A stretch of 64,000 nt of DNA from Nitrososphaerales archaeon (GTDB taxonomy: Archaea; Thermoproteota; Nitrososphaeria; Nitrososphaerales; UBA213): the NCBI GenBank assembly GCA_965197925.1, contig CBDAOC010000013.1, positions 1-64,000 of the forward strand, given 5' to 3'. The notes beneath the pieces were generated by a model. The model was not told the DNA's origin, did no database searches, and worked only from the letters and a program-made list of their open reading frames with translations. This document shows, piece by piece, positions 1 to 56,265 of the stretch; position 1 is the stretch's first letter; the number at the start of each line of letters is the position of its first letter. A program made the translations under genes and the position numbers.

Positions 1-99
1 AAATCCGTGAGTTTGGGGTTCTGGTTTTTAGCTACTAGCAGCGAAAAGAAGCAATTGATATTGCTAAAAATAGCCGATATCAATCTAATATTAAAGTTA

Positions 100-966
100 T
101 TAAATAGTAAGGGCCCTTATTATGTCCGTTCTAGTAATAATACCAACCAGAGTACCTTTTAAATCAACTACTGGAAGGCCAGTTATCCTATTCCTTGTCA
201 TTATTTGTGCAGATTCAGCAAGATCAGAGTCGCTGTTAATTGTTATGGGATCAAACTTCATTAAATCCTTGGCGAGGAATATTGCACTTATGCCCGATGG
301 TATGATCATTTGGACTTCTTTATGTGAAGAGAAAACTTCTTTAATTGTCTCAGAGGTATCAGGACCAACTAGTGAACTCACAGGAAGTATATCACGCCCT
401 GTTATTATACCTACAGGTTTATGGCCTCTTACAACAACTACCCTCGATATATTATTGCTCGTCATTAATAATAGAACCATATGCGTATTTTCATCTGGTG
501 TTACTGTCAGGACTTTTTTAGTCATATAATCTCCTACCAAATTTTTTCCAGCATAATATTTTGCATAGACAGCCATCAAATCACTTTTAGTGAATACTCC
601 ATTCAGGTTGTTCTTACTATCGGTAACTACTAATGAGCTTATTTCCTTGTCTATCATCAACTTGGCGGATTTATTCAAATCAAATTGTTCTTTAACTGTC
701 ACTAGGTCTTTGCTCATCACCTCGTCTACTCTGATTTCGTCAAGACGCCTAGTAGCCGCAGTTCCATAAAGAAATCGTGCAATATCTTTCTCTGTAATGA
801 TTCCTACGGGTTTTCCTTTTTTTGTGATTATGATTCTACTTATGTCATATCTGAGCAAAGCATTACGTGCATCGTAAAGAGTTTTAGTAGGTTCAAGAGT
901 GATGGCTTTCCTTCGCGCGTCCTTCGCCTTCAGGCGCATATACTTTTTCATATTCTTGTTCTCCAT
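100..966 (-). CDS. CBS-domain protein (four CBS motifs, two Bateman modules)
   Basis: Repeated CBS motifs VGIITEKDI, GVFTKSDL, VGIITGRDI, VGIITRTDI. Confidence 0.9.
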   Translation of the reverse strand: MENKNMKKYMRLKAKDARRKAITLEPTKTLYDARNALLRYDISRIIITKKGKPVGIITEKDIARFLYGTAATRRLDEIRVDEVMSKDLVTVKEQFDLNKSAKLMIDKEISSLVVTDSKNNLNGVFTKSDLMAVYAKYYAGKNLVGDYMTKKVLTVTPDENTHMVLLLMTSNNISRVVVVRGHKPVGIITGRDILPVSSLVGPDTSETIKEVFSSHKEVQMIIPSGISAIFLAKDLMKFDPITINSDSDLAESAQIMTRNRITGLPVVDLKGTLVGIITRTDIIRALTI

Positions 967-1042
967 TCAATTTATTTAAGAAGTTTTCATTCTATACAAG
1001 ATATAGGAACTTTTTTTGTCCAACACAATTTTATAAAAAAAT

Positions 1043-1490
1043 CTACAAATTGGTCTCTTCGATCATCTTGAACCTTCCCATGGCAAGTAGAACATCATCT
1101 TTTTCGGTTTCCCTCTGCATTACCCGTGCAAGGTCTGTCGTGGTTACTATACCAAATAATGTGCCCTCTTCAATAATTGGCAGTCTTCATATCCCATACT
1201 TGTACATCACGTTGGCAGCACTAGATATTGTGGCTTCAGGCCCAACGCTTATTATGGGCTTGGATACGATATCGCTAACCTTGGTTGCAGAAGGACTTCT
1301 ATCTTCAGCTAAGACACGCCTTACCATGTCTCTTTCAGTAACTATTCCAATTGGTTTTCCACCCTCTACAACTACAAGAGAACCTCTGGCTCTTTCCTTC
1401 ATCACGTTCGCTGCAAAAGCCACCGTTAGCCCTCCTTCAATAGTGTCAACCGGAGTTTCTGTCATTATTTCTAACTCTTTTCCTTAACAT
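1043..1490 (-). pseudogene. CBS-pair protein, disrupted
   Basis: GIVTERDMV motif, then an in-frame TGA in KYGI*RLPIIEEGTLFGIVTTTDL; the reading continues to TAG at 1043; the 5' ATG at 1490 is out of frame. Confidence 0.8.
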
Positions 1491-1624
1491 GATATCACTT
1501 TCAAGCTTTCGTTATTTAAAAAGTAAACACGATTTCTAAAATTGGGAATCAACTTTGACAACTGAAAGTAACTATCATTGTGTTTATACATGGTAAGAAG
1601 TAATTTGTTGGGTATGAACTGTGG

Positions 1625-2345
1625 TTGGAGATAAGACTTTTAGAATCATTAGATACTGAAGAGCTAATTGTTTTGGTTGATTTGCCAGATGTTGGTTTGG
1701 TGGATACAATAACAGTATCATATATCATAGATAAAATGAAGATGAGGGAGTTAGGTAATATTGACTCCAATATTTCCAACCTTGATTATTGTCAAGGAAA
1801 CAGTACTCAAAAATATTTTTAGAATTTACGCCAAGGACAATATAATAGCAACCATTTCTGGTGTTCCCTTAATAGCATCTGTGTTGAATCAATTCTTCAG
1901 AACTCTTCTAGCATGGGTTCAAATACTTACTCCAAAGCCAATGATAGGCTTGTCCTGTACATACTGGATAAAGATAAACAACCCGGTAGTGGGAATAACA
2001 ACAACAAAGGGTATAGAGGTCCATCCTGACGAAGCAAATGTAAGCTTGCTTAGCGGGTGTTTTCTCTGGGATTTGGCCATGGCTTATCATAGAATGTACT
2101 AGACAAAATATTCCAAATCTCACATTAATCGTAGAATTCTATCTAAACTTCCCAGATACAACTTCCTGTTTAGAAACACCTTTCATTGTAAGCAAAATTC
2201 TTAACATTCGTATTAATTTTAAACAGTTAGAAGAGGAAAGCGAAAGAATAATGATATGTGTTCGAGAGCTGATACTACTTATCGAACAGTCAATAAAAAA
2301 TCTCAAATATTAAAGAAAGAAAAGATCCACACCATGTATAGGTGA
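1625..2345 (+). pseudogene. PAC2-family proteasome assembly chaperone, frameshifted
   Basis: LPDVGLV..I.V.YII..MKMRELG.IDS..FP then RIYAKDN spread over several frames; C-terminal ..MYR* resembles the HbYX tail. Confidence 0.75.
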
Positions 2346-2349
2346 TTTA

Positions 2350-2769
2350 TTGAGCAACGATAAAAGTTATCAAGAAAATGACCTTACATATATGACCAAT
2401 CACTGCGGATTATATGGATTTGTCAATATTCGAATTTCTTTATGCTCTAGAAAAAAGAGAATTGGTATCAATAACCGAATTAATTGAAAATGTTGATGAA
2501 TTGATAGTAAAATTCTATCCACCATGAGTTAGAAGAGGAGACATGAATCTAACGATTGAAGAAGATGTTCAAAAATAATGTACCTATAATGAATGGGTAT
2601 TGGTTAACACCCCCAATTCTACAAAGGAATTATGATTCAAAGAGTTCAGAAAGGTTATAAGGTTATGCTATGCAGTTGATGTCACAATGGCTAGGTTACA
2701 TTCAATAATGGTCTACTCGAGATTTGGTTGCCTAATGGGAGAAACCATAACGAGGTAAGCAGAGAATGA
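2350..2769 (+). pseudogene. Hsp20/alpha-crystallin small heat-shock protein, decayed
   Basis: Manual translation ELIENVDELIVKFYPP*VRRGDMNLTIEED...FKEFRKVIRL..AVD, then a frameshift to VTFNNGLLEIWLP (Hsp20 AxFxNGxLxIxLP motif); GGTGA RBS upstream. Confidence 0.7.
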
Positions 2770-2785
2770 TGTATATTATCAATAG

Positions 2786-3973
2786 GTGTTATCTAGAATG
2801 GTTATAAGAAGAATGGGTGACGCACTTTATAATTCTCTGAATAATCTACGTACCAAATCTGTCAAGAAAATAATCGAAGGATCTCTGGATGTAAAGGCAA
2901 CCAACTCGTTTTCTACAATTATAGGAATCTTAATGGAACAAGATGCATATGAGGCCTTTATTCCTGTATCAAACAAAGTTGCAAGTATAAACTTGAGGGA
3001 TATACTTGGGATCAGGAACATCACTTCTACAAAACCATCATTAATCGGCAAGTTAGTTCCAAGTTTAACCTATGAAAGTAATCTTGGATATGCCGCAAGG
3101 ATAATGAGCTCCTATGGGTTGAGGTCCCTTCCTGTAGTCCAAGACAGCAAGATCATTGGTCAGGTTAATGTAAAATCCATAGCTAAAAGTATCAAGGATA
3201 CGGGAATTAAAGTTGGTAAAGCCTCAGATATAATGACTCCAAATCCGATTGTGCTTAGAGCGAATGACAAGGCATCAAGTGGAAAAGGCATGATGATAAA
3301 GCATAAAATTGATCATCTTCCCGTTATGGAAGAGAAGAGGCTTGCAGGAATAGTCACTTCGTCTCACATGGTGAGAGCAACACTGCCATCTGAAAGGATA
3401 GGTAGAAGGTCTCTGGGGGTTGATAAAATAATCAGGCTAGATTTTCCTGTGATAAGCATAGCAGATCGGGATGTTATAACATCGAAACCTCAAGATACTC
3501 TGCAATCTGTTATAGGTTCGATTATAGATATGAATTCGACTTATTCCGTGGTCAAGGTATGGGACGAGATTCAGGGAATCATCACATACAGAGATATAGT
3601 TGCATTGCTGGCAGAGAGGATCGAAGAAGATATACCTTCTTTCATTGTTGGTTTGCCAGAAGATCCTTTCGATGCGGAGCTTGCCAAGACAAAATTCACT
3701 GGGCTAATCAAATTGTTAAGAAAAGTATCTCCAGATATAGAGGAGGCTAGATGTTCTATGAAAATAAGAAATATGCAGGGGCAGCGAAGAAGGTACGAGG
3801 TGGGTGTTAACATAATAACACCAACCAAACGGCATACTTATACCAACGCAGGATGGGATCTAGCAAAAATATTTGATGAGATTAGTGATGGTCTCAAGAA
3901 AAAGTTAGCTCATAGACCAACAAGAAAGAAAAGAAGCTCCGTAAGGTACAGAACAGATCATTACACAAGTTGA
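2786..3973 (+). CDS. Four-CBS protein with C-terminal HPF/RaiA-like domain (candidate archaeal ribosome hibernation factor, Hib-type)
   Basis: CBS motifs (LRSLPVV, IDHLPVM, IQGIITYRDIV) followed by a ~95-aa beta-alpha-beta-beta-beta-alpha-like domain (IVGLPED...YEVGVNII...AGWDLAKIFDEISDGLKKKL) and a basic tail. Confidence 0.75.
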   Translation: MLSRMVIRRMGDALYNSLNNLRTKSVKKIIEGSLDVKATNSFSTIIGILMEQDAYEAFIPVSNKVASINLRDILGIRNITSTKPSLIGKLVPSLTYESNLGYAARIMSSYGLRSLPVVQDSKIIGQVNVKSIAKSIKDTGIKVGKASDIMTPNPIVLRANDKASSGKGMMIKHKIDHLPVMEEKRLAGIVTSSHMVRATLPSERIGRRSLGVDKIIRLDFPVISIADRDVITSKPQDTLQSVIGSIIDMNSTYSVVKVWDEIQGIITYRDIVALLAERIEEDIPSFIVGLPEDPFDAELAKTKFTGLIKLLRKVSPDIEEARCSMKIRNMQGQRRRYEVGVNIITPTKRHTYTNAGWDLAKIFDEISDGLKKKLAHRPTRKKRSSVRYRTDHYTS

Positions 3974-4041
3974 ATATCATAGAATTATTCATTTGAATTC
4001 TAACACTACGGTCTTTTCATTGAATAGAGTTTAGAATCATA

Positions 4042-4173
4042 CTACATTGGATGGTTACTCAAGAAATCTCATTTGCATTCTTCCGAACAGAACACATATC
4101 CCTTGTAGAACACAGGTTACTGAATCTTCTTATCACATTTTAAACATCGTTTGATATATGTTTCATTTGCCAT
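4042..4173 (-). pseudogene. Small YHS/TRASH-like metal-binding protein with two in-frame stops
   Basis: MANETYIKRCLKCDKKIQ*PVFYKGYVFCSEECK*DFLSNHPM*: CxxC...FCSxxC pattern; GGTGA RBS. Confidence 0.65.
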
Positions 4174-5168
4174 TTCACCCATAATTCATCATTTCCATGT
4201 ACTCCTTGAAAGATATAATTTTAGTATACAATTTCCATTATTGATAACCAGTTATAGAAATCATCATTGTGTTGATATTAGAATAAGGTTTTTTATTGAG
4301 TGAATTTTCAAAATCAATAACCATGCAATTTGATATACATACATAATTCTCGTCACATTCTGAAAATAATAATACACCCAACATTAATTCTTGTGTAGAT
4401 TTCGGCAAAATGACTTCAAATTATTAAAGTGTTTTCTTGTGCAAATTACTAATGACGATGCCCTTTGGCACAGGCATGTAAAGATAAAGTGGGGGACGCT
4501 AGAGATAGTACACATACCTGTACCAGAGTGCCTCATTCTACCATCTATGAAATCATATATATTCAGTTTGTATTCATTGCAAGTGAGTGCATTACTAAAT
4601 TATTACAAACCACTCTCCGTAATCTTACTGATGTAATTCTGACTTGTAATAATGTTTAAAGGGCATATCAATTTGTTACAACCCAGAAATTCAACCGTTA
4701 AAATCTTCAATTTGAAGGATTAGGTAGATTCTTACAGAATGTTTTAGTAATTTTGACTCTACTGTATAAACACCATTTGGTCAACAACGGAATAGGATAT
4801 GCCATTGCCTTAACCATAATACATATCAAAACCTCGGCCTAATCCTATTTCATTCTTTATTATATCATAACGAAAATTCATTTTTGGATTTGTGATCATT
4901 TCATGATGCATCAACCTAGGAAAATAAAATAGTTTTTAGGAAAGGCGAAATGTTTGCTTATAGTATACTAATATCTTATCCGGTTATCTCATATAGATTT
5001 TGCATTGTAGATGTTTACTAGAAATGTGTGGGCAAAGTCATAATCAACCGAGTGAAAGTTTCGATAGTATGATTGCACGAAAATTAATTGGATTGATATT
5101 TAGTAGGATTGATATTGGTGACAGGGGACAACAAAGGATAGAAACTTCTATCATCGATATGTAGTAAA

Positions 5169-5609
5169 TTGAAAAAGGAAAGTACGTTTCTTACAAGAAT
5201 ACTCGTTCCTAAAGATGGATCAAAATGCTCTTTGGAAGCTGCATATCGGGCATTTGAACTTACAAAGAAGCATTCTGAAATAATAGCTTTGTATATCATA
5301 TTCATCCCCTCATCTCCCGGTTTATCAAGTTCAACCAAGAAAATTTACAGGCATGCTGAGAAAGAAGCTTGCAAGTGGCTAAACAGTTTGCAGAGAAAGG
5401 CTGAGGCTGAAGACGTGAAATTTAGAGCAGTGGCATTGAAATCAAAAGATTCTATTATCTTCCCAATAGCCGAGTTTGCAGCGAAGAATGATATCGATCT
5501 TATAATTCTAGGTACCAGTGGGAGGACACAATATAGAAAGACTCTATTGGGTAGTGTTGCAAGCGGGATAGCAAGCTATGCTCCTTGCTCTGTGATGGTG
5601 GTAGGGTGA
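5169..5609 (+). CDS. Universal stress protein (UspA family)
   Basis: RILVPKDGSKCS N-terminus; DLIILGTSGRT..LLGSVA..IA..APCSVMVV. Confidence 0.9.
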   Translation: MKKESTFLTRILVPKDGSKCSLEAAYRAFELTKKHSEIIALYIIFIPSSPGLSSSTKKIYRHAEKEACKWLNSLQRKAEAEDVKFRAVALKSKDSIIFPIAEFAAKNDIDLIILGTSGRTQYRKTLLGSVASGIASYAPCSVMVVG

Positions 5610-5631
5610 AGTTTAGTTGCCGCTTGATACT

Positions 5632-6509
5632 CAACTGATCCCAAAACTGATCATTTAGTGAATAATTGACGATCATTTGGATCTATTTGCAATGCTGCCC
5701 GTAGCAGATCATGAAATTTCAGGAGATAACAGGTGAACAATGGAAGATGATATCACCGCATCTCCCCAAGCCAGCCAGAACCGGAAGGCCAAGGGCAGAC
5801 GACAGAAAGACAGTCAACGGAATCCTGTTTGTCGGGATAACAGGATGCAGGTGGACTGGGATGTCACAAAGGTACGGCTCCAAATCAACTGCGCACCGCA
5901 GACTGCAGAACTGGCAGCGACGTGGAATATGGAAGAATATCCTCTCCGCTGCAGTCAAATCAGCCCACAGATCAGGCAAGATGCAGCTGCAAAAAACGGT
6001 CGATTCGTCATCAGTTCCGGCCAAAAAAGGGGAAGCGTCATAGGATACAACGGATTCAACAGGATTTCAGGCACAAAAATACACGTTGCGGTGGAACAAA
6101 ACGGACTGCCAGTCTCAGTAGTAATGTCCTGCAAATCAGCATGACTCTGCAAGATTTGTAGACGTGATGGATGGCATCTCACAATATCTGGATGAGAGAT
6201 CTATCAGAAAAATTGCGCGGTGCCAAGCAGACAAGGGCTATGATGCAGAATTCATCAGGAAATACCTCACCAAAAGAAAAATCTCTGACTGCATGCCTTA
6301 CAGAAAAAACAGTAAGACACAACAACAAAATGATAATACAGAACAATACCTATACGGCAAGACGCGCTATGTTGTGGAGAGATTCTTTGCCTGGTTGAAG
6401 AATGGGTTCCACAGAACCAGGATCAGATATGAGAAGAATGCACAAAACTATCTGGCATTTGTTATCATTTCGTCGATTATGATGTATTGGAGAGTATTGG
6501 GATGACTTC
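5632..6509 (+). mobile_element. IS5-family element (split orfA/orfB, IS427-like), probably inactive
   Basis: Imperfect TIRs CAACTGATCCCAAAAC / GTATTGGGATGACTTC; orfA 5711..6043 (TGRPR..D, TGCRW); A6G4 slippery site 6023-6032; orfB ADKGYD, RYVVERFFAWL; extra frameshift near 6125. Confidence 0.9.
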
Positions 6510-6750
6510 ACAGTTAGTCCCACATTATACAACTCTTCAGAAGTTTGCTGCTAGGATAGATGGCAACATACTTTACAGAATAATTTCTTCTTTCATACTA
6601 ACCAAGATTAGGAAATTGTTCGTAGCAATAGATGCTTTTGGATTCAGGTCGAGCAATGCATCGTCATACTATACGGATAGAACAAGAATAAGGAAAAAGT
6701 ACATCAAGCTATCGATAGGTACTGAAGTGAGAGAGCAGGTAACATGTTAA
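6510..6750 (+). pseudogene. Internal fragment of a second DDE transposase type (IS5/IS4-like)
   Basis: VPHYTTLQKFA...VAIDAFGF...ASSYY...YIKLSI, abutting the IS end at 6509. Confidence 0.75.
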
Positions 6751-6982
6751 TTGAAGACATCTTGATTACTTTGACAGGATAATCATCGAACTTGGCAAGA
6801 GATACGGAAAAGAAATTATTACTAACGATGGTTTGATAAAAATCAGAAATTACAAGAGGGAACTCGTCAATATAGACCCTGATCCAATTATTATACATCA
6901 ATCATATTTGGGATTGCGAAATGTCCTATTTGCTTTGATGCCTGAAATATGATCTTAAACGTTCTTATCTTATGCGCGGCTC

Positions 6983-8152
6983 GTGCATGTTATGAGAAGT
7001 CTTCAAACTATAGTGGAAGGTAACACTAAACTGGTTGTACCTGCAGATTCTCTTACCAGTAAAGTTCCTCCTAGAAATCCAGCATTTTTCAATCCAAATG
7101 CAAGATTAAGCAGGGATTTTTCAATCATTGCATACAAATCCTATGTCAAAAAGTTGAATGAAAAAAGCATGGCTGATGCACTTGCGGGAGTTTGTGCAAG
7201 AGGGGTTAGAACTGCTGTTGAGGTCAGGGAGCTTGATGAGATATACGTCAATGACGCAAACCCGATTGCCCTTGGGATGGGGAGGGAATCATGCAGGCTC
7301 AATAACGTTGAGAAACAGTGCAAGTTTAGTATGAATGAAGCGTGTAGGTTCCTCATCAGGCATTCTTCCAAAGGGTCCAGATTTGGAATAATTGATCTAG
7401 ATCCCTTTGGGACACCAGCACCATACATTGACTGTGCACTCAGAGCTCTGGACAATGAAGGACTTTTAAGCGTCACAGCTACAGATACTGCTGTTCTTTG
7501 CGGCATATACCCAAATGTATGCAAAAGAAGGTATTATGGTCGATCATTGAATGTTGAATATGGAAATGAAATTAGTTTGCGATTAATAGTGGGTCTAATA
7601 TCAATGATTGCCTCCAGACTTGAACTTGGAATCAAGCCTTTATTCGTTCACAGCAACAGAAATTACTTACGTGTTTATGCAAGAGTAAATATTGGCAGTA
7701 GGTATGCTGAAGCAATGCCAAGCAAGCTAGGATACATCTATCACTGCTTTTCCTGCAGCCATAGAGCTTATTCGTACAATACCGATAATAGTAAAATTTG
7801 TGAATCGTGTGAAAAAGAAATGAGGCATGCTGGCCAATTATGGATTGAGGATATGTTTGATAAAGATTTTATTGAACAAATGTTACAATATGTTGATAGT
7901 TGTAATATTGATAAAAAGTGCAGAAAATTGCTTTCAGTGGCTAAGGAAGAGATAAGTATGCCTCCCGCTTACTTTTCTGTAGACAAAGTTTCAGAAAGGG
8001 CAAGGTTAACTCCTCCTTCTATATCTGAAATCATAGACAGACTAAAAACTTCAGGTTTTTCAGCCGCGCGAACAAGTCTATGCTATACAGGCTTCAGGAC
8101 AGATGCAAAACATAATGAAATTCTAGATTTGTTCAGACAAATTGTAACCTAG
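6983..8152 (+). CDS. trm1: tRNA (guanine-26-N2)-dimethyltransferase
   Basis: FFNP...SRD, IDLDPFGTP, VTATDTAVLCG, CxxC..CxxC, GQLW, TGFRTDA motifs. Confidence 0.95.
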   Translation: MHVMRSLQTIVEGNTKLVVPADSLTSKVPPRNPAFFNPNARLSRDFSIIAYKSYVKKLNEKSMADALAGVCARGVRTAVEVRELDEIYVNDANPIALGMGRESCRLNNVEKQCKFSMNEACRFLIRHSSKGSRFGIIDLDPFGTPAPYIDCALRALDNEGLLSVTATDTAVLCGIYPNVCKRRYYGRSLNVEYGNEISLRLIVGLISMIASRLELGIKPLFVHSNRNYLRVYARVNIGSRYAEAMPSKLGYIYHCFSCSHRAYSYNTDNSKICESCEKEMRHAGQLWIEDMFDKDFIEQMLQYVDSCNIDKKCRKLLSVAKEEISMPPAYFSVDKVSERARLTPPSISEIIDRLKTSGFSAARTSLCYTGFRTDAKHNEILDLFRQIVT

Positions 8153-8728
8153 ACAAACGAGATAAATCTCACTACTAGCCTTCTTACTCGCTTTCGGTTT
8201 ATAAAGACGCACCTTGTTGAACTTTACCTTGAGAAAATCTCTCACTTCATTTAACATGGCGCCTTCAAACACCTTGAATACAGCATTACCATTTTTTGCA
8301 AGAATTGTGTCCATTACGGAGATTGCATTTTCTGTTAATGCTATTTGCCTAGTATGATCCAGCTGCCAGATTCCAGTAATATTTGGCGCTAGGTCTGATA
8401 ATACCAGATTTACTTTCGCTCCCATTGTTGACAGGATTTTTTGAGCCAATGAATTATCATCAACGCTTCCCTCGATAACCTCTACATTAGGCATTGGCAT
8501 AACAATACGTTTATCAACACCAAGGACCATTCCTTGTCCACCTACAAACCTTCTTGCAACTTGTAACCATCCACCGGGTGCACAGCCAAGATCCACAACG
8601 AGCATTCCTCTATTTATTATATGAAATGAATTATTAATTTCCATTAATTTAAATGCCGCTCTGCTTCTATACCCATGATCTTTAGCTAACCGTCTGTATA
8701 GGTCGTGTTTAGCCTCTTGCAGACGCAT
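8123..8728 (-). CDS. rlmE: 23S rRNA (uridine-2'-O)-methyltransferase RlmE/FtsJ
   Basis: GYRSRAAFKL, DLGCAPGGW, VLSDLAPNITG, KVFEG, KPKAS...SSEIY. Confidence 0.95.
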   Translation of the reverse strand: MRLQEAKHDLYRRLAKDHGYRSRAAFKLMEINNSFHIINRGMLVVDLGCAPGGWLQVARRFVGGQGMVLGVDKRIVMPMPNVEVIEGSVDDNSLAQKILSTMGAKVNLVLSDLAPNITGIWQLDHTRQIALTENAISVMDTILAKNGNAVFKVFEGAMLNEVRDFLKVKFNKVRLYKPKASKKASSEIYLVCLGYNLSEQI

Positions 8729-9128
8729 GTTTCTTACCGTCTACACTTACATTAATTAATTGTTCTGACCTACTGTTTTCATTTAATATCCAATTTTCAA
8801 TAAGCAAACATGTGTTGGGGCTTACAGTACCGTCGATCGAACACATATGTTCAACCGGGCACGTCAAGCAAGGAGCTTGTTCTATGCAATTAGTATCAAC
8901 AGGGAGTTTTATTGCTATTAGTTTGTAAGTCCATCTTCCATTTTCTAGAACCTTTTCACGCCTTATCAGTGACCTTCTTTCCAGCCTTATAGACATCCGA
9001 GAACCATCCCTGCTTGTCAGATTAAGTTTCTTCCATAATTCACTTTGATGGATGCCAGCCTTCCCATTCTCCGCAACCATTCGGAACACCTTTGTTGTCA
9101 AGTCCTCAATATAATCATCTTCACTCAA
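8709..9128 (-). CDS. Winged-helix plus Cys4 (Fe-S) protein, RPC34/RPC39-like TFE beta subunit
   Basis: GIHQSELWKKLNL.SRDGSR wHTH followed by PCLTCP...C......SPNTC..I..W. Confidence 0.75.
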   Translation of the reverse strand: MSEDDYIEDLTTKVFRMVAENGKAGIHQSELWKKLNLTSRDGSRMSIRLERRSLIRREKVLENGRWTYKLIAIKLPVDTNCIEQAPCLTCPVEHMCSIDGTVSPNTCLLIENWILNENSRSEQLINVSVDGKKHASARG

Positions 9129-9634
9129 AAGGAAACATAACTCCGCAGTTTGTAATACAATGTACCAGTAAATAATTGTTTACCTGTTCTATTTGTTGGT
9201 AGCTTTAGCCCAACCTAGTGGTCTAAAGGACCTCAAATTAATTAAAGAGATGAATATTCAGACTAATTTTATATTATCAGCGATTTACGAGCAAGCTCTT
9301 ACAATTTAGTTATTACAAGTGAAGATAATTACCTAAAAATACTGTTCTTAGTAATATAAAGAGTAATAACATTCAAGGGTAGTATAAGTACATAGAAATT
9401 TTGCAACTTTTTTATTGGTACAATATGTACAGATAAAAGAATTATATTATTTCTTCCACTTTAATGATCCATTTGGCAAAAGCGAAAGTTTTCAATTTTT
9501 TTAGAGATAAAGAATAATGTAACTACAATTTTGGGCATTTATATAGGTATATTTTATTTGATAAACTATCTCAAATCATTGATATTTACCATTATAAACT
9601 AGAAATTATCTATATAATCCTTATAGGAAGTCTA

Positions 9635-11398
9635 TTGTTTACAACAAGAAATAAAAAGGATAATCATCCCTATTGTAGGAAGATGTATTTGTTTAATTTA
9701 AAATATCCTGCTATAGTAATAATACTATTATTATTTACAATGATTTTGCCTGTGGGCTATACGCAGTCGGATTTAACTGACTACTCACTAGTAAAGCTTA
9801 CTGCCAAGAGCTGGAAGACCATCACAGTTTTAAAGGTTAACAATAGTGAAGATAACATTTACAACGCCAAGCTTATTTGGCTAACACTGGAAAATGGTAA
9901 CATTCAATCCTATAAAGCAGTGGATGGATGGAGTACGGAAGAATCATCATCAAATCCGAATACCATACAGTTTAGTACGGAGACAAACTCGATAAGACCC
10001 GGAGAATCCACAAGGTTCGGTATCAAGTCAGATCAATCAAACCCTATCTTCAAGTGGATTGTCATTGACGAAGAGGGCGACGAACTTGGGAGTGGCCTAT
10101 TAGACGTAGTCAAAGCAATAGAGGAAGAGGCCGCAACGGAGGAAGCTGCAATGGAAGCTGCAATGGAAGCTGCAATGGAAGCTGCAATGGAAGCTGTAAT
10201 GGAAGCTGTAATGGAAGCTGCGAAGTCCACCACTGACAATATCAACGCAGAAAAAAATAATTCAACTCCAACTAATGGATCAAACGTTAAAGAGATTCCA
10301 GATATTCTCGACAAGAAACCTGCATTTGCGGTGATACCGGATACAGCAAGACCTGGTCTTGTCATGAGAATATTAGGTGAAGGCTTCATGCCAGATTCGA
10401 GGCTGACTATTCTGTTCGATGGAAAATTGATAGAGACTCTGAAGACAGCATCTGACGGAACAATTATGGATAGAATAACAATTCCCCAGGATGTAGTTGA
10501 TGGTGCTCATCAGTTATCTGTTTCAGATAGTAGTGGAAGGGCTGCAAATCTACCCATTACTGTAACAATTGAGGAAAAAGAAATTTCTTTTATGGTAACC
10601 ACCGAACAAGAAACATACAAACAAGGTGATCTTGTAAAGATAGTTGGTGTTGGAAAAGGGGGAGCCGCTGTTTCATTGAGAGCTGCAAATCCTTCTGGAG
10701 TTTCCATATTCTTTTCAGCGGTTCCAGTTAATAAGGATGGCAAATTTACAGCATTCATACCACTAGGCTCTACAACTATGACAGGTGAGTATCTAGTAAG
10801 TGCCTTGCAGGAAGGTATGACAATTACAACAAAGTTCAATGTCAAGACAGAAACTGGCTTTGAGATGACAATAGTTACCGACAAGTTCGAGTACAAACAG
10901 GGTGAGAGCGTGATAATAACAGGGCAGACATTGTCAAATAAAGACATTGGTATTACGGTTATAGATCCCAATGATAATGAAATGTTCACAACGGTTGTAA
11001 TATCAGATAACAATGGGCAATACAATGCAACAATGCTTGTGCCTCTAAACTCCCAGTTAGGCAAATATTCTGTAACTGCCAAGGCAGGCGATGAGGAGCT
11101 AGCATTAACATTCTCAGTCGTAAGAGGCTCAGTTGCTCTAACCGTGAAAACAGACAAGAGTGAATACAGGGATGGAGAGCTTGTAAGGATCAGTGGAAAA
11201 GGAAAGCCGGGTGAGAGATTATCGATAGTTATCCTCACTCCTAATGAAGACCGCATTCCGATGTCTGCTAATATTAAAGAGGATGGAACTTATAGTGCAT
11301 TATGGTTGATCCAGAAAACTGCAGATTCTGGTACTTACCGAGTAATTGTTCAGGATGAAGAATCTAGAGCAGAGGCTTTCTTCGCAGTGAGCTCCTGA
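9635..11398 (+). CDS. Secreted/surface protein with tandem Ig-like repeats (true start may be Met at 9683)
   Basis: Hydrophobic signal segment; three repeats of the type TDKxxYxxGExVxIxG; low-complexity linker. Confidence 0.8.
   Translation: MFTTRNKKDNHPYCRKMYLFNLKYPAIVIILLLFTMILPVGYTQSDLTDYSLVKLTAKSWKTITVLKVNNSEDNIYNAKLIWLTLENGNIQSYKAVDGWSTEESSSNPNTIQFSTETNSIRPGESTRFGIKSDQSNPIFKWIVIDEEGDELGSGLLDVVKAIEEEAATEEAAMEAAMEAAMEAAMEAVMEAVMEAAKSTTDNINAEKNNSTPTNGSNVKEIPDILDKKPAFAVIPDTARPGLVMRILGEGFMPDSRLTILFDGKLIETLKTASDGTIMDRITIPQDVVDGAHQLSVSDSSGRAANLPITVTIEEKEISFMVTTEQETYKQGDLVKIVGVGKGGAAVSLRAANPSGVSIFFSAVPVNKDGKFTAFIPLGSTTMTGEYLVSALQEGMTITTKFNVKTETGFEMTIVTDKFEYKQGESVIITGQTLSNKDIGITVIDPNDNEMFTTVVISDNNGQYNATMLVPLNSQLGKYSVTAKAGDEELALTFSVVRGSVALTVKTDKSEYRDGELVRISGKGKPGERLSIVILTPNEDRIPMSANIKEDGTYSALWLIQKTADSGTYRVIVQDEESRAEAFFAVSS
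10141..10221 (+). repeat. Coding 12-bp tandem repeat (GGAAGCTG[C/T]AAT), ~6.75 units, encoding EAAM/EAVM
   Basis: Four units with C, two with T, one partial. Confidence 0.95.
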
Positions 11399-11460
11399 CT
11401 TTATCTATTTCTTTGACCACCGTAAATGAGTTCCTTCATTATTCAAAAGTATGTCCTTAA

Positions 11461-11779
11461 CGGCTGTGTAGAAACCATAGATTTTAGCCTGTTGTGCACG
11501 GAATTGCACCATGAGATCAATGTATCACATATAACTCCTGCCTATGCATGAAAGAGTCAAGGTATGTCAAACTTGCTAGAACCATGCTCAATGTTTTGAT
11601 AAAGGCCAGGATACCCCTGTACATACACAAGAAGAGCAATCATATCTACATTGTATGGCAGCATACAATCCTTCTGGTATTAAGGCAGTATGAAGGGAAG
11701 AGCTACAGGAGGTTTGTGGAATGGCTGCATGAAGCATACTACCTGAGGATCTTTCTACATCTAGATATAGTACCCCATT
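11461..11779 (+). mobile_element. 5' remnant of an IS (same transposase type as 6510..6750), truncated by the adjacent IS5
   Basis: ORF from 11548 MKESRYVKLA...LVLRQYEGKSYRRFVEWL...DIVPH broken at 11779; putative left end CGGCTGTGTAGAAACC. Confidence 0.7.
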
Positions 11780-12653
11780 CAACTCATCTCAAAACCCTAC
11801 AATACATCAAAAATGATGCAGGATTAACAAATGCCAGATAGTTTTCTGCCGTTCTTTCATACCTGATTCTTGTTCTGTGAAATCCATTCTTGAGTCATGC
11901 AAGGAATCTCTCAACTACAAATCTTGTCTTGTTGTAATGTTTGCAATCATTATTTTGCAAGATGAACTTGGAATTTATTTTGTATGGGATGCAACATGCA
12001 ATATTTCTATCCCACAAATACATTCTGATGTATTTTGCATCATTTTGTCTGCATAAACTGATTCTATCTGTTGTATTGAATCATCATCAAGATAGTCTGA
12101 AATTGATCCTGTAACATCTATGCATTTTGTACTGTCATGTTCATTTGCCGGACTCAACAGTATGGATATTGGAAATCCGTTACTCTCTACTGCGGCATGT
12201 ATTTTTGTACCTGTTATTCTCTTGAATCCATTATATCCAGTTACATTGCCCCTTTTTTATCAGGAATGGATGAAGAGTCAACTGATATTTTTTGTAGATT
12301 AATTTTGCCAGATTTATGTGCTGAGTGAATAGTACGTGATAGAATCTTTTTCCAGATTCCTTTTTGTTGCCATTTGTTTAACCTTCTGTTTGCAGTAGAA
12401 TCATCACCATATCTTTTTGGCATATCGTCCCATCGGCATCCAGTAGTTAGAACATGGATTATTCCGTTAATGATTTTTCTATCATCATCCCTAGGCCTGC
12501 CAGTTTTTGCATGTGGTGGTATGTGTGATTCCATCATACTCCACTGTTTGTCTGATAATTCTTGGAATTTCATAAAATAATTTTAGATGTCGCTATTCAT
12601 AGATCTAAATGGCCGCTAAAAATTGTCTAAATGGTTAGTTTTGAGATGAGTTG
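11780..12653 (-). mobile_element. IS5-family element (orfA/orfB), inactive; forms the inner boundary of the duplication
   Basis: Perfect 16-bp TIR CAACTCATCTCAAAAC; orfA 12241..12573; A6G4 slip site; orfB has frameshifts and a TGA; no target duplication. Confidence 0.93.
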
Positions 12654-13316
12654 AGTATAGGATGGGACTGGCAATCCATGGATAGCGTTACTGTGAAGGC
12701 CCCATTAGGGGGAAAACGACCGGAGCAAACCCAACGGATAGAGGTAAGCTAGGTACCAAACGTCACATGCTGGTTGATAGAAGAGGTATTCCTCTCTCAT
12801 CTGTAATTACTGGAGCAAACAAGCACGATATGAAATCAGCCTTTCCTACAATAGATAGCATTGTTGTTGATAGGCCCAAAGTTAAACAGAACATATGCAT
12901 GAATAGGATACGATTTCACTGAGATAGAGTATGGAGTTAGGAGAAGAGGATATGTAGATCACACGCGTCATAAGGGTGAAGTGTTGAAAAAGAATTTGTA
13001 CAAAGCAAAGAGATGGGTTGTAGAAAGAACCGCATCTTGGCATAACAGGTTCAGAAAGTTATTGGTAAGGTTCGAGAAGAAGAAGGAAAATTATCAGGCA
13101 TTAGTAGAATTTGCTAACTGCTTAATAGAGTAGAGGGATATATTGGTAGTGTCATAAACACGTTAATGCAACTGTTTCTAGTATCTACTATCTACAATAC
13201 TAATAAAATCAATAGTAAGAAAACTAAACCTGATATTATGAACTAATATTCTTACATTCTAAATGTTATCATTTCTACCAATCATTAACTACCAGCTAGA
13301 ATTTTAGGATAGGCTC
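12654..13316 (+). mobile_element. 3' half of another IS5-family element (type of 25762..26810)
   Basis: Matches ~26146..26630; RWVVERTASWHNRFRKL; right TIR TTTTAGGATAGGCTC followed by TTA. Confidence 0.88.
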
Positions 13317-45957: not shown

Positions 45958-46831
45958 CAACTCATCTCAAAACTAACCATTTAGACAATTTTTAGCGACC
46001 ATTTAGATCCATGAATAGCGACATCTAAAATTATTTTATGAAATTCCAAGAATTATCAGACAAACAGTGGAGTATGATAGAATCACACATACCGCCACAT
46101 GCAAAAACTGGCAGGCCTAGGGATGATGATAGAAAAATCATTAACGGAATAATCCATGTTCTAACTACTGGATGCCGATGGGACGATATGCCAAAAAGAT
46201 ATGGTGATGATTCTACTGCAAACAGAAGGTTAAACAAATGGCAACAAAAAGGAATCTGGAAAAAGATTCTATCACGTACTATTCACTCAGCACATAAATC
46301 TGGCAAAATTAATCTACAAAAAATATCAGTTGACTCTTCATCCATTCCTGATAAAAAAGGGGCAATGTAACTGGATATAATGGATTCAAGAGAATAACAG
46401 GTACAAAAATACATGCCGCAGTAGAGAGTAACGGATTTCCAATATCCATACTGTTGAGTCCAGCAAATGAACATGACAGTACAAAATGCATGGATGTTAC
46501 AGGATCAATTTCAGACTATCTTGATGATGATTCAATACAACAGATAGAATCAGTTTATGCAGACAAAATGATGCAAAATACATCAGAATGTATTTGTGGG
46601 ATAGAAATATTGCATGTTGCATCCCATACAAAATAAATTCCAAGTTCATCTTGCAAAATAATGATTGCAAACATTACAACAAGACAAGATTTGTAGTTGA
46701 GAGATTCCTTGCATGGCTCAAGAATGGATTTCACAGAACAAGAATCAGGTATGAAAGAACGGCAGAAAACTATCTGGCATTTGTTAATCCTGCATCATTT
46801 TTGATGTATTGTAGGGTTTTGAGATGAGTTG
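45958..46831 (+). mobile_element. IS5-family element (variant of 11780..12653)
   Basis: Perfect 16-bp TIRs; orfA 46038..46370; at least 7 substitutions relative to the mirror copy. Confidence 0.93.
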
Positions 46832-47150
46832 AATGGGGTACTATATCTAGATGTAGAAAGATCCTCAGGTAGTATGCTTCATGCAGCCATTCCACAAACC
46901 TCCTGTAGCTCTTCCCTTCATACTGCCTTAATACCAGAAGGATTGTATGCTGCCATACAATGTAGATATGATTGCTCTTCTTGTGTATGTACAGGGGTAT
47001 CCTGGCCTTTATCAAAACATTGAGCATGGTTCTAGCAAGTTTGACATACCTTGACTCTTTCATGCATAGGCAGGAGTTATATGTGATACATTGATCTCAT
47101 GGTGCAATTCCGTGCACAACAGGCTAAAATCTATGGTTTCTACACAGCCG
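46832..47150 (-). mobile_element. 5' IS remnant (mirror of 11461..11779)
   Basis: Identical translation. Confidence 0.7.
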
Positions 47151-47212
47151 TTAAGGACATACTTTTGAATAATGAAGGAACTCATTTACGGTGGTCAAAG
47201 AAATAGATAAAG

Positions 47213-48976
47213 TCAGGAGCTCACTGCGAAGAAAGCCTCTGCTCTAGATTCTTCATCCTGAACAATTACTCGGTAAGTACCAGAATCTGCAGTTTTCTGG
47301 ATCAACCATAATGCACTATAAGTTCCATCCTCTTTAATATTAGCAGACATCGGAATGCGGTCTTCATTAGGAGTGAGGATAACTATCGATAATCTCTCAC
47401 CCGGCTTTCCTTTTCCACTGATCCTTACAAGCTCTCCATCCCTGTATTCACTCTTGTCTGTTTTCACGGTTAGAGCAACTGAGCCTCTTACGACTGAGAA
47501 TGTTAATGCTAGCTCCTCATCGCCTGCCTTGGCAGTTACAGAATATTTGCCTAACTGGGAGTTTAGAGGCACAAGCATTGTTGCATTGTATTGCCCATTG
47601 TTATCTGATATTACAACCGTTGTGAACATTTCATTATCATTGGGATCTATAACCGTAATACCAATGTCTTTATTTGACAATGTCTGCCCTGTTATTATCA
47701 CGCTCTCACCCTGTTTGTACTCGAACTTGTCGGTAACTATTGTCATCTCAAAGCCAGTTTCTGTCTTGACATTGAACTTTGTTGTAATTGTCATACCTTC
47801 CTGCAAGGCACTTACTAGATACTCACCTGTCATAGTTGTAGAGCCTAGTGGTATGAATGCTGTAAATTTGCCATCCTTATTAACTGGAACCGCTGAAAAG
47901 AATATGGAAACTCCAGAAGGATTTGCAGCTCTCAATGAAACAGCGGCTCCCCCTTTTCCAACACCAACTATCTTTACAAGATCACCTTGTTTGTATGTTT
48001 CTTGTTCGGTGGTTACCATAAAAGAAATTTCTTTTTCCTCAATTGTTACAGTAATGGGTAGATTTGCAGCCCTTCCACTACTATCTGAAACAGATAACTG
48101 ATGAGCACCATCAACTACATCCTGGGGAATTGTTATTCTATCCATAATTGTTCCGTCAGATGCTGTCTTCAGAGTCTCTATCAATTTTCCATCGAACAGA
48201 ATAGTCAGCCTCGAATCTGGCATGAAGCCTTCACCTAATATTCTCATGACAAGACCAGGTCTTGCTGTATCCGGTATCACCGCAAATGCAGGTTTCTTGT
48301 CGAGAATATCTGGAATCTCTTTAACGTTTGATCCATTAGTTGGAGTTGAATTATTTTTTTCTGCGTTGATATTGTCAGTGGTGGACTTCGCAGCTTCCAT
48401 TACAGCTTCCATTACAGCTTCCATTGCAGCTTCCATTGCAGCTTCCATTGCAGCTTCCATTGCAGCTTCCTCCGTTGCGGCCTCTTCCTCTATTGCTTTG
48501 ACTACGTCTAATAGGCCACTCCCAAGTTCGTCGCCCTCTTCGTCAATGACAATCCACTTGAAGATAGGGTTTGATTGATCTGACTTGATACCGAACCTTG
48601 TGGATTCTCCGGGTCTTATCGAGTTTGTCTCCGTACTAAACTGTATGGTATTCGGATTTGATGATGATTCTTCCGTACTCCATCCATCCACTGCTTTATA
48701 GGATTGAATGTTACCATTTTCCAGTGTTAGCCAAATAAGCTTGGCGTTGTAAATGTTATCTTCACTATTGTTAACCTTTAAAACTGTGATGGTCTTCCAG
48801 CTCTTGGCAGTAAGCTTTACTAGTGAGTAGTCAGTTAAATCCGACTGCGTATAGCCCACAGGCAAAATCATTGTAAATAATAATAGTATTATTACTATAG
48901 CAGGATATTTTAAATTAAACAAATACATCTTCCTACAATAGGGATGATTATCCTTTTTATTTCTTGTTGTAAACAA
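47213..48976 (-). CDS. Secreted Ig-like repeat protein (copy 2)
   Basis: Identical protein to 9635..11398, including the EAAM repeat at 48390..48470. Confidence 0.8.
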   Translation of the reverse strand: MFTTRNKKDNHPYCRKMYLFNLKYPAIVIILLLFTMILPVGYTQSDLTDYSLVKLTAKSWKTITVLKVNNSEDNIYNAKLIWLTLENGNIQSYKAVDGWSTEESSSNPNTIQFSTETNSIRPGESTRFGIKSDQSNPIFKWIVIDEEGDELGSGLLDVVKAIEEEAATEEAAMEAAMEAAMEAAMEAVMEAVMEAAKSTTDNINAEKNNSTPTNGSNVKEIPDILDKKPAFAVIPDTARPGLVMRILGEGFMPDSRLTILFDGKLIETLKTASDGTIMDRITIPQDVVDGAHQLSVSDSSGRAANLPITVTIEEKEISFMVTTEQETYKQGDLVKIVGVGKGGAAVSLRAANPSGVSIFFSAVPVNKDGKFTAFIPLGSTTMTGEYLVSALQEGMTITTKFNVKTETGFEMTIVTDKFEYKQGESVIITGQTLSNKDIGITVIDPNDNEMFTTVVISDNNGQYNATMLVPLNSQLGKYSVTAKAGDEELALTFSVVRGSVALTVKTDKSEYRDGELVRISGKGKPGERLSIVILTPNEDRIPMSANIKEDGTYSALWLIQKTADSGTYRVIVQDEESRAEAFFAVSS

Positions 48977-49482
48977 TAGACTTCCTATAAGGATTATATA
49001 GATAATTTCTAGTTTATAATGGTAAATATCAATGATTTGAGATAGTTTATCAAATAAAATATACCTATATAAATGCCCAAAATTGTAGTTACATTATTCT
49101 TTATCTCTAAAAAAATTGAAAACTTTCGCTTTTGCCAAATGGATCATTAAAGTGGAAGAAATAATATAATTCTTTTATCTGTACATATTGTACCAATAAA
49201 AAAGTTGCAAAATTTCTATGTACTTATACTACCCTTGAATGTTATTACTCTTTATATTACTAAGAACAGTATTTTTAGGTAATTATCTTCACTTGTAATA
49301 ACTAAATTGTAAGAGCTTGCTCGTAAATCGCTGATAATATAAAATTAGTCTGAATATTCATCTCTTTAATTAATTTGAGGTCCTTTAGACCACTAGGTTG
49401 GGCTAAAGCTACCAACAAATAGAACAGGTAAACAATTATTTACTGGTACATTGTATTACAAACTGCGGAGTTATGTTTCCTT

Positions 49483-49902
49483 TTGAGTGAAGATGATTAT
49501 ATTGAGGACTTGACAACAAAGGTGTTCCGAATGGTTGCGGAGAATGGGAAGGCTGGCATCCATCAAAGTGAATTATGGAAGAAACTTAATCTGACAAGCA
49601 GGGATGGTTCTCGGATGTCTATAAGGCTGGAAAGAAGGTCACTGATAAGGCGTGAAAAGGTTCTAGAAAATGGAAGATGGACTTACAAACTAATAGCAAT
49701 AAAACTCCCTGTTGATACTAATTGCATAGAACAAGCTCCTTGCTTGACGTGCCCGGTTGAACATATGTGTTCGATCGACGGTACTGTAAGCCCCAACACA
49801 TGTTTGCTTATTGAAAATTGGATATTAAATGAAAACAGTAGGTCAGAACAATTAATTAATGTAAGTGTAGACGGTAAGAAACATGCGTCTGCAAGAGGCT
49901 AA
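49483..49902 (+). CDS. TFE-beta/RPC34-like wHTH Fe-S protein (copy 2)
   Basis: Identical to 8709..9128. Confidence 0.75.
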   Translation: MSEDDYIEDLTTKVFRMVAENGKAGIHQSELWKKLNLTSRDGSRMSIRLERRSLIRREKVLENGRWTYKLIAIKLPVDTNCIEQAPCLTCPVEHMCSIDGTVSPNTCLLIENWILNENSRSEQLINVSVDGKKHASARG

Positions 49903-50488
49903 ACACGACCTATACAGACGGTTAGCTAAAGATCATGGGTATAGAAGCAGAGCGGCATTTAAATTAATGGAAATTAATAATTCATTTCATATAATAAATA
50001 GAGGAATGCTCGTTGTGGATCTTGGCTGTGCACCCGGTGGATGGTTACAAGTTGCAAGAAGGTTTGTAGGTGGACAAGGAATGGTCCTTGGTGTTGATAA
50101 ACGTATTGTTATGCCAATGCCTAATGTAGAGGTTATCGAGGGAAGCGTTGATGATAATTCATTGGCTCAAAAAATCCTGTCAACAATGGGAGCGAAAGTA
50201 AATCTGGTATTATCAGACCTAGCGCCAAATATTACTGGAATCTGGCAGCTGGATCATACTAGGCAAATAGCATTAACAGAAAATGCAATCTCCGTAATGG
50301 ACACAATTCTTGCAAAAAATGGTAATGCTGTATTCAAGGTGTTTGAAGGCGCCATGTTAAATGAAGTGAGAGATTTTCTCAAGGTAAAGTTCAACAAGGT
50401 GCGTCTTTATAAACCGAAAGCGAGTAAGAAGGCTAGTAGTGAGATTTATCTCGTTTGTCTAGGTTACAATTTGTCTGAACAAATCTAG
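49883..50488 (+). CDS. rlmE: RlmE/FtsJ methyltransferase (copy 2)
   Basis: Identical to 8123..8728. Confidence 0.95.
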   Translation: MRLQEAKHDLYRRLAKDHGYRSRAAFKLMEINNSFHIINRGMLVVDLGCAPGGWLQVARRFVGGQGMVLGVDKRIVMPMPNVEVIEGSVDDNSLAQKILSTMGAKVNLVLSDLAPNITGIWQLDHTRQIALTENAISVMDTILAKNGNAVFKVFEGAMLNEVRDFLKVKFNKVRLYKPKASKKASSEIYLVCLGYNLSEQI

Positions 50489-51628: not shown

Positions 51629-51860
51629 GAGCCGCGCATAAGATAAGAACGTTTAAGATCATATTTCAGGCATCAAAGCAAATAGGACATTTCGCAATCC
51701 CAAATATGATTGATGTATAATAATTGGATCAGGGTCTATATTGACGAGTTCCCTCTTGTAATTTCTGATTTTTATCAAACCATCGTTAGTAATAATTTCT
51801 TTTCCGTATCTCTTGCCAAGTTCGATGATTATCCTGTCAAAGTAATCAAGATGTCTTCAA

Positions 51861-52101
51861 TTAACATGTTACCTGCTCTCTCACTTCAGTACCTATCGAT
51901 AGCTTGATGTACTTTTTCCTTATTCTTGTTCTATCCGTATAGTATGACGATGCATTGCTCGACCTGAATCCAAAAGCATCTATTGCTACGAACAATTTCC
52001 TAATCTTGGTTAGTATGAAAGAAGAAATTATTCTGTAAAGTATGTTGCCATCTATCCTAGCAGCAAACTTCTGAAGAGTTGTATAATGTGGGACTAACTG
52101 T
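51861..52101 (-). pseudogene. Transposase fragment (mirror of 6510..6750)
   Basis: Identical translation. Confidence 0.75.
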
Positions 52102-52979: not shown

Positions 52980-53001
52980 AGTATCAAGCGGCAACTAAAC
53001 T

Positions 53002-54569: not shown

Positions 54570-54637
54570 TATGATTCTAAACTCTATTCAATGAAAAGAC
54601 CGTAGTGTTAGAATTCAAATGAATAATTCTATGATAT

Positions 54638-55825
54638 TCAACTTGTGTAATGATCTGTTCTGTACCTTACGGAGCTTCTTTTCTTTCTTGTTGGTCTATG
54701 AGCTAACTTTTTCTTGAGACCATCACTAATCTCATCAAATATTTTTGCTAGATCCCATCCTGCGTTGGTATAAGTATGCCGTTTGGTTGGTGTTATTATG
54801 TTAACACCCACCTCGTACCTTCTTCGCTGCCCCTGCATATTTCTTATTTTCATAGAACATCTAGCCTCCTCTATATCTGGAGATACTTTTCTTAACAATT
54901 TGATTAGCCCAGTGAATTTTGTCTTGGCAAGCTCCGCATCGAAAGGATCTTCTGGCAAACCAACAATGAAAGAAGGTATATCTTCTTCGATCCTCTCTGC
55001 CAGCAATGCAACTATATCTCTGTATGTGATGATTCCCTGAATCTCGTCCCATACCTTGACCACGGAATAAGTCGAATTCATATCTATAATCGAACCTATA
55101 ACAGATTGCAGAGTATCTTGAGGTTTCGATGTTATAACATCCCGATCTGCTATGCTTATCACAGGAAAATCTAGCCTGATTATTTTATCAACCCCCAGAG
55201 ACCTTCTACCTATCCTTTCAGATGGCAGTGTTGCTCTCACCATGTGAGACGAAGTGACTATTCCTGCAAGCCTCTTCTCTTCCATAACGGGAAGATGATC
55301 AATTTTATGCTTTATCATCATGCCTTTTCCACTTGATGCCTTGTCATTCGCTCTAAGCACAATCGGATTTGGAGTCATTATATCTGAGGCTTTACCAACT
55401 TTAATTCCCGTATCCTTGATACTTTTAGCTATGGATTTTACATTAACCTGACCAATGATCTTGCTGTCTTGGACTACAGGAAGGGACCTCAACCCATAGG
55501 AGCTCATTATCCTTGCGGCATATCCAAGATTACTTTCATAGGTTAAACTTGGAACTAACTTGCCGATTAATGATGGTTTTGTAGAAGTGATGTTCCTGAT
55601 CCCAAGTATATCCCTCAAGTTTATACTTGCAACTTTGTTTGATACAGGAATAAAGGCCTCATATGCATCTTGTTCCATTAAGATTCCTATAATTGTAGAA
55701 AACGAGTTGGTTGCCTTTACATCCAGAGATCCTTCGATTATTTTCTTGACAGATTTGGTACGTAGATTATTCAGAGAATTATAAAGTGCGTCACCCATTC
55801 TTCTTATAACCATTCTAGATAACAC
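54638..55825 (-). CDS. CBS plus HPF-like candidate hibernation factor (copy 2)
   Basis: Identical to 2786..3973. Confidence 0.75.
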   Translation of the reverse strand: MLSRMVIRRMGDALYNSLNNLRTKSVKKIIEGSLDVKATNSFSTIIGILMEQDAYEAFIPVSNKVASINLRDILGIRNITSTKPSLIGKLVPSLTYESNLGYAARIMSSYGLRSLPVVQDSKIIGQVNVKSIAKSIKDTGIKVGKASDIMTPNPIVLRANDKASSGKGMMIKHKIDHLPVMEEKRLAGIVTSSHMVRATLPSERIGRRSLGVDKIIRLDFPVISIADRDVITSKPQDTLQSVIGSIIDMNSTYSVVKVWDEIQGIITYRDIVALLAERIEEDIPSFIVGLPEDPFDAELAKTKFTGLIKLLRKVSPDIEEARCSMKIRNMQGQRRRYEVGVNIITPTKRHTYTNAGWDLAKIFDEISDGLKKKLAHRPTRKKRSSVRYRTDHYTS

Positions 55826-55841
55826 CTATTGATAATATACA

Positions 55842-56261: not shown

Positions 56262-56265
56262 TAAA

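Follow-up and report, generated by a model that had tools for sequence, protein, structure and literature searches.

The closest described system is HibA of Pyrococcus abyssi, a ribosome hibernation factor made of four CBS domains and an HPF/RaiA domain and reported from 47% of archaeal genomes (PMC13324472; Madru et al., Nat Commun 2026). HibA is described as anchored on the 30S subunit and as taking three positions on the 50S; it inhibits translation, and its deletion gives a recovery defect. Its structures are available as PDB 9SR9-9SRF and 9T7H (PMC13324472). The same family was named AHA in Haloferax volcanii (HVO_2384) in a study which used a Nitrososphaera viennensis protein as search query and reports 3160 homologues in 2723 species (PMC13728122; Souza et al., EMBO J 2026). 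In these two papers binding to 30S and 70S, inhibition of translation and preservation of 70S in stationary phase are reported for the proteins of P. abyssi, T. barophilus and H. volcanii. Dri has CBS domains too; it is described as having two tetrads and as binding the 50S in the opposite orientation (PMC13324472, PMC13728122). A literature search on HibA together with Nitrososphaer- or symbionts gave no study of this clade's protein among the matches listed.

The window analyzed here is a stretch of 64,000 nucleotides from a Nitrososphaerales archaeon (contig CBDAOC010000013.1). Its plus strand carries an open reading frame of 395 codons without interruption at 2786-3973. The original prediction, made from the letters of the window, saw in this frame a CBS-HPF fusion acting as an energy-charge-gated hibernation factor in a thaumarchaeon, kept under selection as the only intact gene left in its operon. 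We conclude that the gene is an ordinary, previously unannotated member of the family described in 2025-2026. The host is indeed a thaumarchaeon, since the genome contains an archaeal amoA gene (E 7.7e-111) and its nearest named relatives are Nitrososphaerales. The features are collected in Table 1.

Table 1. Features of the hibA locus in the window.
Feature	Position	Strand	Remark
AT-rich block between genes, opening with a TATA-like stretch	1512..1545		common to the window and L028; by eye
PAC2-family pseudogene, three frameshifts (near 1766, 2055, 2300)	1625..2345	+	50% identity to L028, where the gene is intact
Hsp20 pseudogene, stops at 2393, 2525, 2576, 2633, frameshift near 2697	2357..2769	+	40% identity to L028, where the gene is intact
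hibA/AHA-family gene, 391 aa: four CBS, HPF/RaiA domain, basic tail	2798..3973	+	
CBS tetrad, residues ~15-274	2840..3619	+	Pfam, fold search
Long loop after CBS3, residues ~197-214	3386..3439	+	HibA alignment, homologue conservation
HPF/RaiA-fold domain, residues ~279-372	3632..3913	+	predicted structure, fold and profile searches
Disordered Arg/Lys-rich tail and stop codon	3914..3973	+	
Second identical gene copy	54638..55813	-	within the 12,653-bp inverted repeat

In the database copy and in close homologues the protein starts at ATG 2798 and has 391 amino acids. The GTG at 2786 would add four codons which are absent from the homologues; it belongs to an AGGTG motif, noticed by eye, which resembles a ribosome-binding site and lies 9 nt 5' of ATG 2798. 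This GTG is probably not the real start. Residues are counted from ATG 2798, and residue 279 then corresponds to base 3632, which is where the C-terminal domain had been proposed to begin. A Pfam scan finds CBS at E 2.4e-22, with three stretches above the cut-off, and the predicted structure has the four repeats that had been read from the sequence. The tetrad model aligns with CBS-tetrad proteins over 251 residues (Z 26.9, rmsd 2.4), the matches being SSO3205 (Z 26.9), MJ1225 (26.8), a Sri chain (25.8) and Dri (24.1). In the model the C-terminal domain consists of a strand at 281-284, a helix at 290-310, strands at 316-325, 331-340 and 345-352, and a helix at 355-371; this is the HPF/RaiA-like order of strands and helices that had been suggested. 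The Arg/Lys tail is also present, with seven K/R against one D/E in the last 20 residues, and residues 373-391 are predicted to be disordered (pLDDT <50).

Of the 6584 candidates in a homologue search, 913 proteins passed at E<=0.001. The 120 of these 913 which were listed carry the Pfam label CBS and nothing else, and among the matches listed the source name of one homologue adds "ribosome-associated translation inhibitor RaiA". When the single sequence was searched against the PDB the best match was 9sr9_H (392 aa, E 4.4e-12), covering the CBS part alone; chain H of 9SR9 is P. abyssi HibA (PMC13324472). A profile, A3, was then made from 54 full-length homologues with HibA itself left out, all but one of which (53) came from the 150 matches listed for a search with the C-terminal domain. 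Its best match in the PDB was again 9sr9_H, now in one stretch from profile position 9-367 on chain 5-376 (E 1.4e-48), and HibA ranked above all CBS-only proteins. The second match was 9l96_a (406 aa), which is covered in both domains and, on this alignment, looks like a further family member. The narrower profile A1 placed MJ1225 just above HibA and covered the CBS part, not the HPF domain. Because of the end-to-end profile match to HibA, and the description of HibA in PMC13324472, we assign the protein with great confidence as the Nitrososphaerales orthologue of HibA/AHA, the archaeal ribosome hibernation factor. The proposal of a hibernation factor was thus correct. The four-CBS-HPF architecture is not novel, however: it is that of the published HibA/AHA family, with its occurrence in nearly half of the archaeal genomes (PMC13324472).

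The genes PAC2, Hsp20 and CBS-HPF are intact and in that order in a relative (locus L028 of genome G003), and contig C113 of G007 has the same intact order, but ends within the hib part. In the window both upstream genes are destroyed, by three frameshifts and by four stops plus one frameshift, respectively, while the CBS-HPF gene compared with L028 has no lesion over 390 codons, as originally noted. The lesions are not sequencing errors, because the letters are identical in short-read contigs of three studies (X1, X2 and X4, one of which may be the source sample): one such contig in each spans 1-5656 with no differences and no gaps. As to the operon, the gene order shared by two relatives stands, and it is on this synteny that the grouping of the three genes as a putative operon rests. 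Among the loci L028-L120, many of which have little upstream DNA, L028 alone has PAC2 and Hsp20 upstream, and the arrangement is therefore local to the family. The AT-rich block in Table 1 is a candidate promoter region for the operon and for the divergent CBS genes. A scan for sigma-70 promoters, which is unsuited to archaea, gave 17 sites against 11.4 +/- 3.8 in shuffled sequences.

On the minus strand upstream of the block lie a CBS-pair gene (~1040-1487), broken by one TGA, and an intact gene for a stand-alone four-CBS protein of 288 aa (100-966), with MJ1225 and Sri chains as best PDB matches. The 288-aa gene adjoins the operon in G003 and G007 and is near hib in G006. If this protein is Sri-like, it would occur here together with HibA, a combination described as rare (PMC13324472). 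Downstream of hibA a short Cys-rich remnant with two stops is found at ~4030-4185 (-). It resembles, we presume, a YHS/TRASH metal-binding protein. A universal stress protein (PF00582) is intact at 5169-5609 (+); its gene, the CBS genes, Hsp20 and hibA together make up a stress/dormancy island. Further on, at 6983-9128, follows a housekeeping cluster with Trm1, an RlmE/FtsJ methyltransferase and an Rpc34-like winged-helix protein, all intact. IS elements are located at 5627-6510, 6510-6757, 11460-12657 and 60760-61877, and the expansion of IS elements is heavy genome-wide: several families reach dozens of copies, many of them inserted into one another or in pieces.

An identical second copy of the gene, absent from the original prediction, is found in an inverted repeat of 12,653 bp (1-12653 versus 45958-58610) which starts at the first base of the contig. 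The eight mismatches of the repeat are all within IS copies, and it is bounded by an IS5-like element with 34 copies, for which no target-site duplications could be defined; IS copies lie at 11778-12653 and 45958-46833. The depth over the repeat is close to that of adjacent unique DNA, as for a single copy (25.9 versus 26.7, 19.4 versus 17.2 and 18.9 versus 22.3 in three runs), and that of the next contig 21.1, 16.1 and 13.5 in the same runs; these values were taken from contigs and are a weak measure of copy number. One contig of 7,839 bp extends 2,183 bases beyond position 1, which is as long as the stretch between 58610 and the next IS with one word length added (lengths were matched here, not letters). 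In contig C18 the IS at 45958-46833 is attached to a different flank, and several other duplicates of more than 3 kb are also at contig ends. It is quite likely that there is one real gene copy, which the assembler doubled where rearrangements are bounded by IS elements. The repeat itself probably arose in assembly, from an inversion of the 33-kb segment 12658-45957 between IS copies.

In a sample of 151 genomes of the class, 78 are matched by the profile of the C-terminal domain, either in fusions of ~390 aa or in stand-alone domains with a length of 112-134 aa. In the family the domain is matched in three of the eight other genomes; no match was obtained in the remaining five, three of which are at least 97% complete. 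hibA is dispensable in the family. In another family (f12) the HPF-domain profile finds matches in 65 of the 108 genomes, with full fusions or with stand-alone proteins of 112-134 aa, the latter mostly in one genus (g30). Our guess is that f12 is Nitrosopumilaceae; if so, this is at variance with a remark in PMC13324472 that Nitrosopumilaceae notably lacks factors. Some HibA homologues look split, truncated or frameshifted (L022 and L027 of G035, L092, L098, L119, L106), which may be due to assembly errors or to fission towards a stand-alone HPF. In Nitrosocaldus and related loci (L047-L050, L087, L088, L093, L094, L109, L110), of which five ORFs were scanned, hibA is located between rubrerythrin-VIT1 and NikR-like genes, a conserved setting unlike that of the window.

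The fold of the C-terminal domain was one point on which the original prediction could have failed. When the C-terminal 115 residues were folded alone the best model had a pLDDT of 70.8 and the other four 44-46. In a fold search of 48,161 chains with the lone domain, ranks 1-15 were all hibernation-factor chains (Z 12.0-8.9), and the first unrelated chain came at Z 8.6. Plastid "y" chains are among these matches, and we take them to be the HPF homologue. Foldseek at E<=0.001 gave hibernation-factor chains in 13 of the 14 matches listed, and the same domain in the full-length model reaches Z 13.2 to HPF-type chains. HibA and AHA chains were absent from all fold-search outputs, an absence which carries no evidential weight. 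Among the profiles, the wider A4 finds bacterial HPF (S. aureus) at E 1.8e-5 and the narrower A2 at E 0.09-0.3, and the HibA C-terminal domain was absent from the matches listed for both. A 28-residue match of A2 and A4 to the coat protein of phage Q-beta was dismissed as a short beta-hairpin resemblance, and an RPEL match in the domain as a chance match to the basic tail. The domain thus has the HPF/RaiA fold. PF02482 itself was not matched directly: the window protein's own domain had no PF02482 match above the curated cut-off in the Pfam scan, the domain alone gave no family in Pfam and NCBIfam scans, and PF02482 is matched weakly, at E<=1, by 13 of 37 homologous domains (best 9.2e-5). It could be argued that the domain is dsRBD-like with a non-ribosomal target and that the protein is a CBS-controlled RNA regulator. 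The dsRBD proteins which appear lower in the fold lists, the dsRBD of Loquacious at E 3e-3 and the pull-down of Thermococcales HibA with replication and recombination proteins (PMC13324472) would fit such a regulator. The dsRBDs, however, stay at Z<=7.2 over ~70 residues, while the HPF chains reach Z 9-13 and align over 90-100 residues, the first strand among them, and the sequence homology to HibA extends over the full length; we find the idea of an RNA regulator hardly credible.

A hibernation factor whose neighbours are broken might also be a relic in early decay, sharing the fate of its operon and merely not yet hit. The divergent CBS-pair gene is broken like the two upstream genes, and 11% of the assembly consists of repeats of five or more copies. 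Moreover, the window protein departs from well-conserved columns at 13 positions against 2-8 in the 11 nearest aligned homologues, and the branch dN relative to the relatives is 1.8 (CI 1.3-2.5), on a branch dN of 0.098. For PAC2 and Hsp20 the branch dN is 0.231 and 0.301 and the relative values 3.0 and 2.8; Trm1 has relative values of 0.82, 0.95 and 1.85 in three trios, dS being saturated in two of them. Against a relic speaks that at the pseudogene rate 8.3 lesions are expected in the CBS-HPF frame and none is observed (P(0)=2.4e-4). The branch dN/dS of the window gene is 0.24 (CI 0.15-0.38) in the better trio, a three-taxon estimate, and 0.33 (CI 0.14-1.27) in the second. The GC content of 39.2% is like that of Trm1 (39.1%), unlike the 33-34% of the pseudogenes, and a sister sequence, P0003, is intact and identical at 380 of 391 residues (97%), with mostly conservative changes. 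Run X10 contains a sister strain with about 95% identity. Decay is accordingly very improbable. It should be noted that dN/dS does not separate the gene from its neighbours: the branch values of the pseudogenes are 0.33 and 0.32 with wide CIs, because this branch also covers the time when they still functioned and its dS is noisy. The pairwise values against L028 are 0.21 for CBS-HPF and 0.23 and 0.22 for the pseudogenes. The CBS-HPF gene is under purifying selection, as proposed, perhaps somewhat relaxed.

A special meaning of hibA being the last intact gene, as in the original prediction, is not supported. An intact Hsp20 paralogue with a 158-codon frame is present at C20:705918-706337, and PAC2-family open frames are found on C11 and C19, while the HPF profile finds nothing over the genome except the window gene and its duplicate. 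The loss of redundant copies is therefore the plain explanation, and moreover five of the eight other family genomes have no match to the domain. hibA would have outlived PAC2 and Hsp20 by having, unlike these neighbours, no paralogue in an IS-rich, eroding genome. A second PAC2-Hsp20 pair (G000 C20:705918-706521 and C13:66680-67182) has an intact Hsp20 and a PAC2 split over two contigs, both pieces of which adjoin an IS copy. Coding density is 62.5% in the genome and 69.1% in the loci, which is an unfair control. Bacterial HPF is reported to be often lost in small genomes (10.1101/2025.11.04.686544); with 2.9 Mb the genome of the host is not small. That HibA is kept by selection while neighbouring stress genes are lost suggests that dormancy still matters in this ammonia-oxidiser.

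By analogy with the P. abyssi and H. volcanii proteins the window protein would bind the ribosome, block translation and bind nucleotides. The loop of HibA which enters the peptidyl-transferase centre (190-207; PMC13324472) has its counterpart in residues 197-214, which align with it without gaps (HibA 189-205 in the pairwise alignment) and have the same length and place. In the alignment L198, K202 and I203 are identical and E201 appears as D; E199, G202, R203, G207 and R213 of the loop do not vary among the 50 aligned homologues, despite low pLDDT/flexibility. For the nucleotide pocket the 12 residues of HibA which touch ATP (PMC13324472) were mapped by hand onto the pairwise alignment. Seven are identical (T147, I151, I171, P175, I261, T263 and D266) and make the adenine and ribose contacts. 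The other five differ, HibA D96, D139, V140, S162 and R163 being replaced by G107, N149, P150, D172 and H173, and these include the phosphate contacts S162 (D172) and R163 (H173). D172 and H173 are the usual residues in this clade (all 49 sequences of A1; 44 and 43 of 53 in A3). Position 107, the D96 site facing the beta-phosphate of ATP in HibA, is Gly in the window protein and in P0003; the homologues have Arg in 49 of 49 (A1) and 42 of 53 (A3). The ligand would be an adenine nucleotide, AMP best, probably bound between CBS3 and CBS4.

The idea of energy gating has AMP drive the protein onto ribosomes and ATP release it. The CBS module of HibA is reported to bind AMP with a Kd of 12 uM, ADP with 65 and ATP with 113 (PMC13324472), two AMP are found in ribosome-bound AHA, the level of which is described as constant across growth phases (PMC13728122), and ATP is reported to release the related ARC/Sri factors (10.64898/2026.01.19.700304); the adenosine pocket is, as mentioned, conserved in the window protein. 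On the other hand 5 mM AMP or ATP left the conformations of HibA on the ribosome largely unchanged, and native HibA complexes are described as without nucleotide, the authors stating "no clear effect" (PMC13324472). In the window protein D172, H173 and G107 differ from the phosphate-contact residues of HibA. The AHA authors themselves offer energy gating as a hypothesis (PMC13728122). The label "energy-charge-gated" can thus not be kept, since P. abyssi HibA binds AMP and ATP with its ribosome binding largely unchanged (PMC13324472), and we consider such a switch possible but rather doubtful. A more daring idea is that in this lineage adenylate sensing by HibA is being lost or altered and the ribosome clamp retained. 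It would be marked by Gly at 107, next to the clade-typical Asp172, and by several further departures from conserved columns in CBS2-3. We regard it as unlikely; if true, nature would have supplied in this eroding genome of an ammonia-oxidiser a "sensor-blind" form that could serve as a control for nucleotide gating. The IDH-type pocket of the clade and R107G are natural variants for testing the nucleotide gating of HibA.

The family, its ribosome structures and knockouts have already been published, and as a discovery the gene has little value. Of the known systems the bacterial and plastid HPF/RaiA/pY proteins (PF02482) have the same fold as the C-terminal domain (Z 12.0, rmsd 3.4, 98 residues) at 8-17% identity; they are without a CBS module, and the dimerisation domain of long HPF is absent from the window protein. 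Dri, SriA-D/ARC and AMPK gamma have the CBS tetrad fold in common with it (Z 22-27). Dri and SriA-D/ARC are, unlike the window protein, without an HPF domain, and it is this domain that rules out membership of the CBS-only Dri/Sri group. AHA, by its published description (PMC13728122), shares the fusion of four CBS domains to HPF and the extended loop 3. Compared with HibA the window protein is distant in sequence (pairwise E 4.4e-12), has a basic disordered tail and the PAC2-Hsp20 gene context, and reads IDH where HibA has ISR in the CBS3 motif. With regard to the two archaeal insertions in the HPF domain of HibA, the profile alignment shows a linker of similar length between the first strand and the helix and a hairpin which looks ~5 residues shorter in the window protein. 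The two proteins are of near-equal length, 391 and 392 aa, and have the same order, with four CBS domains and then the HPF domain from residue ~270-279.
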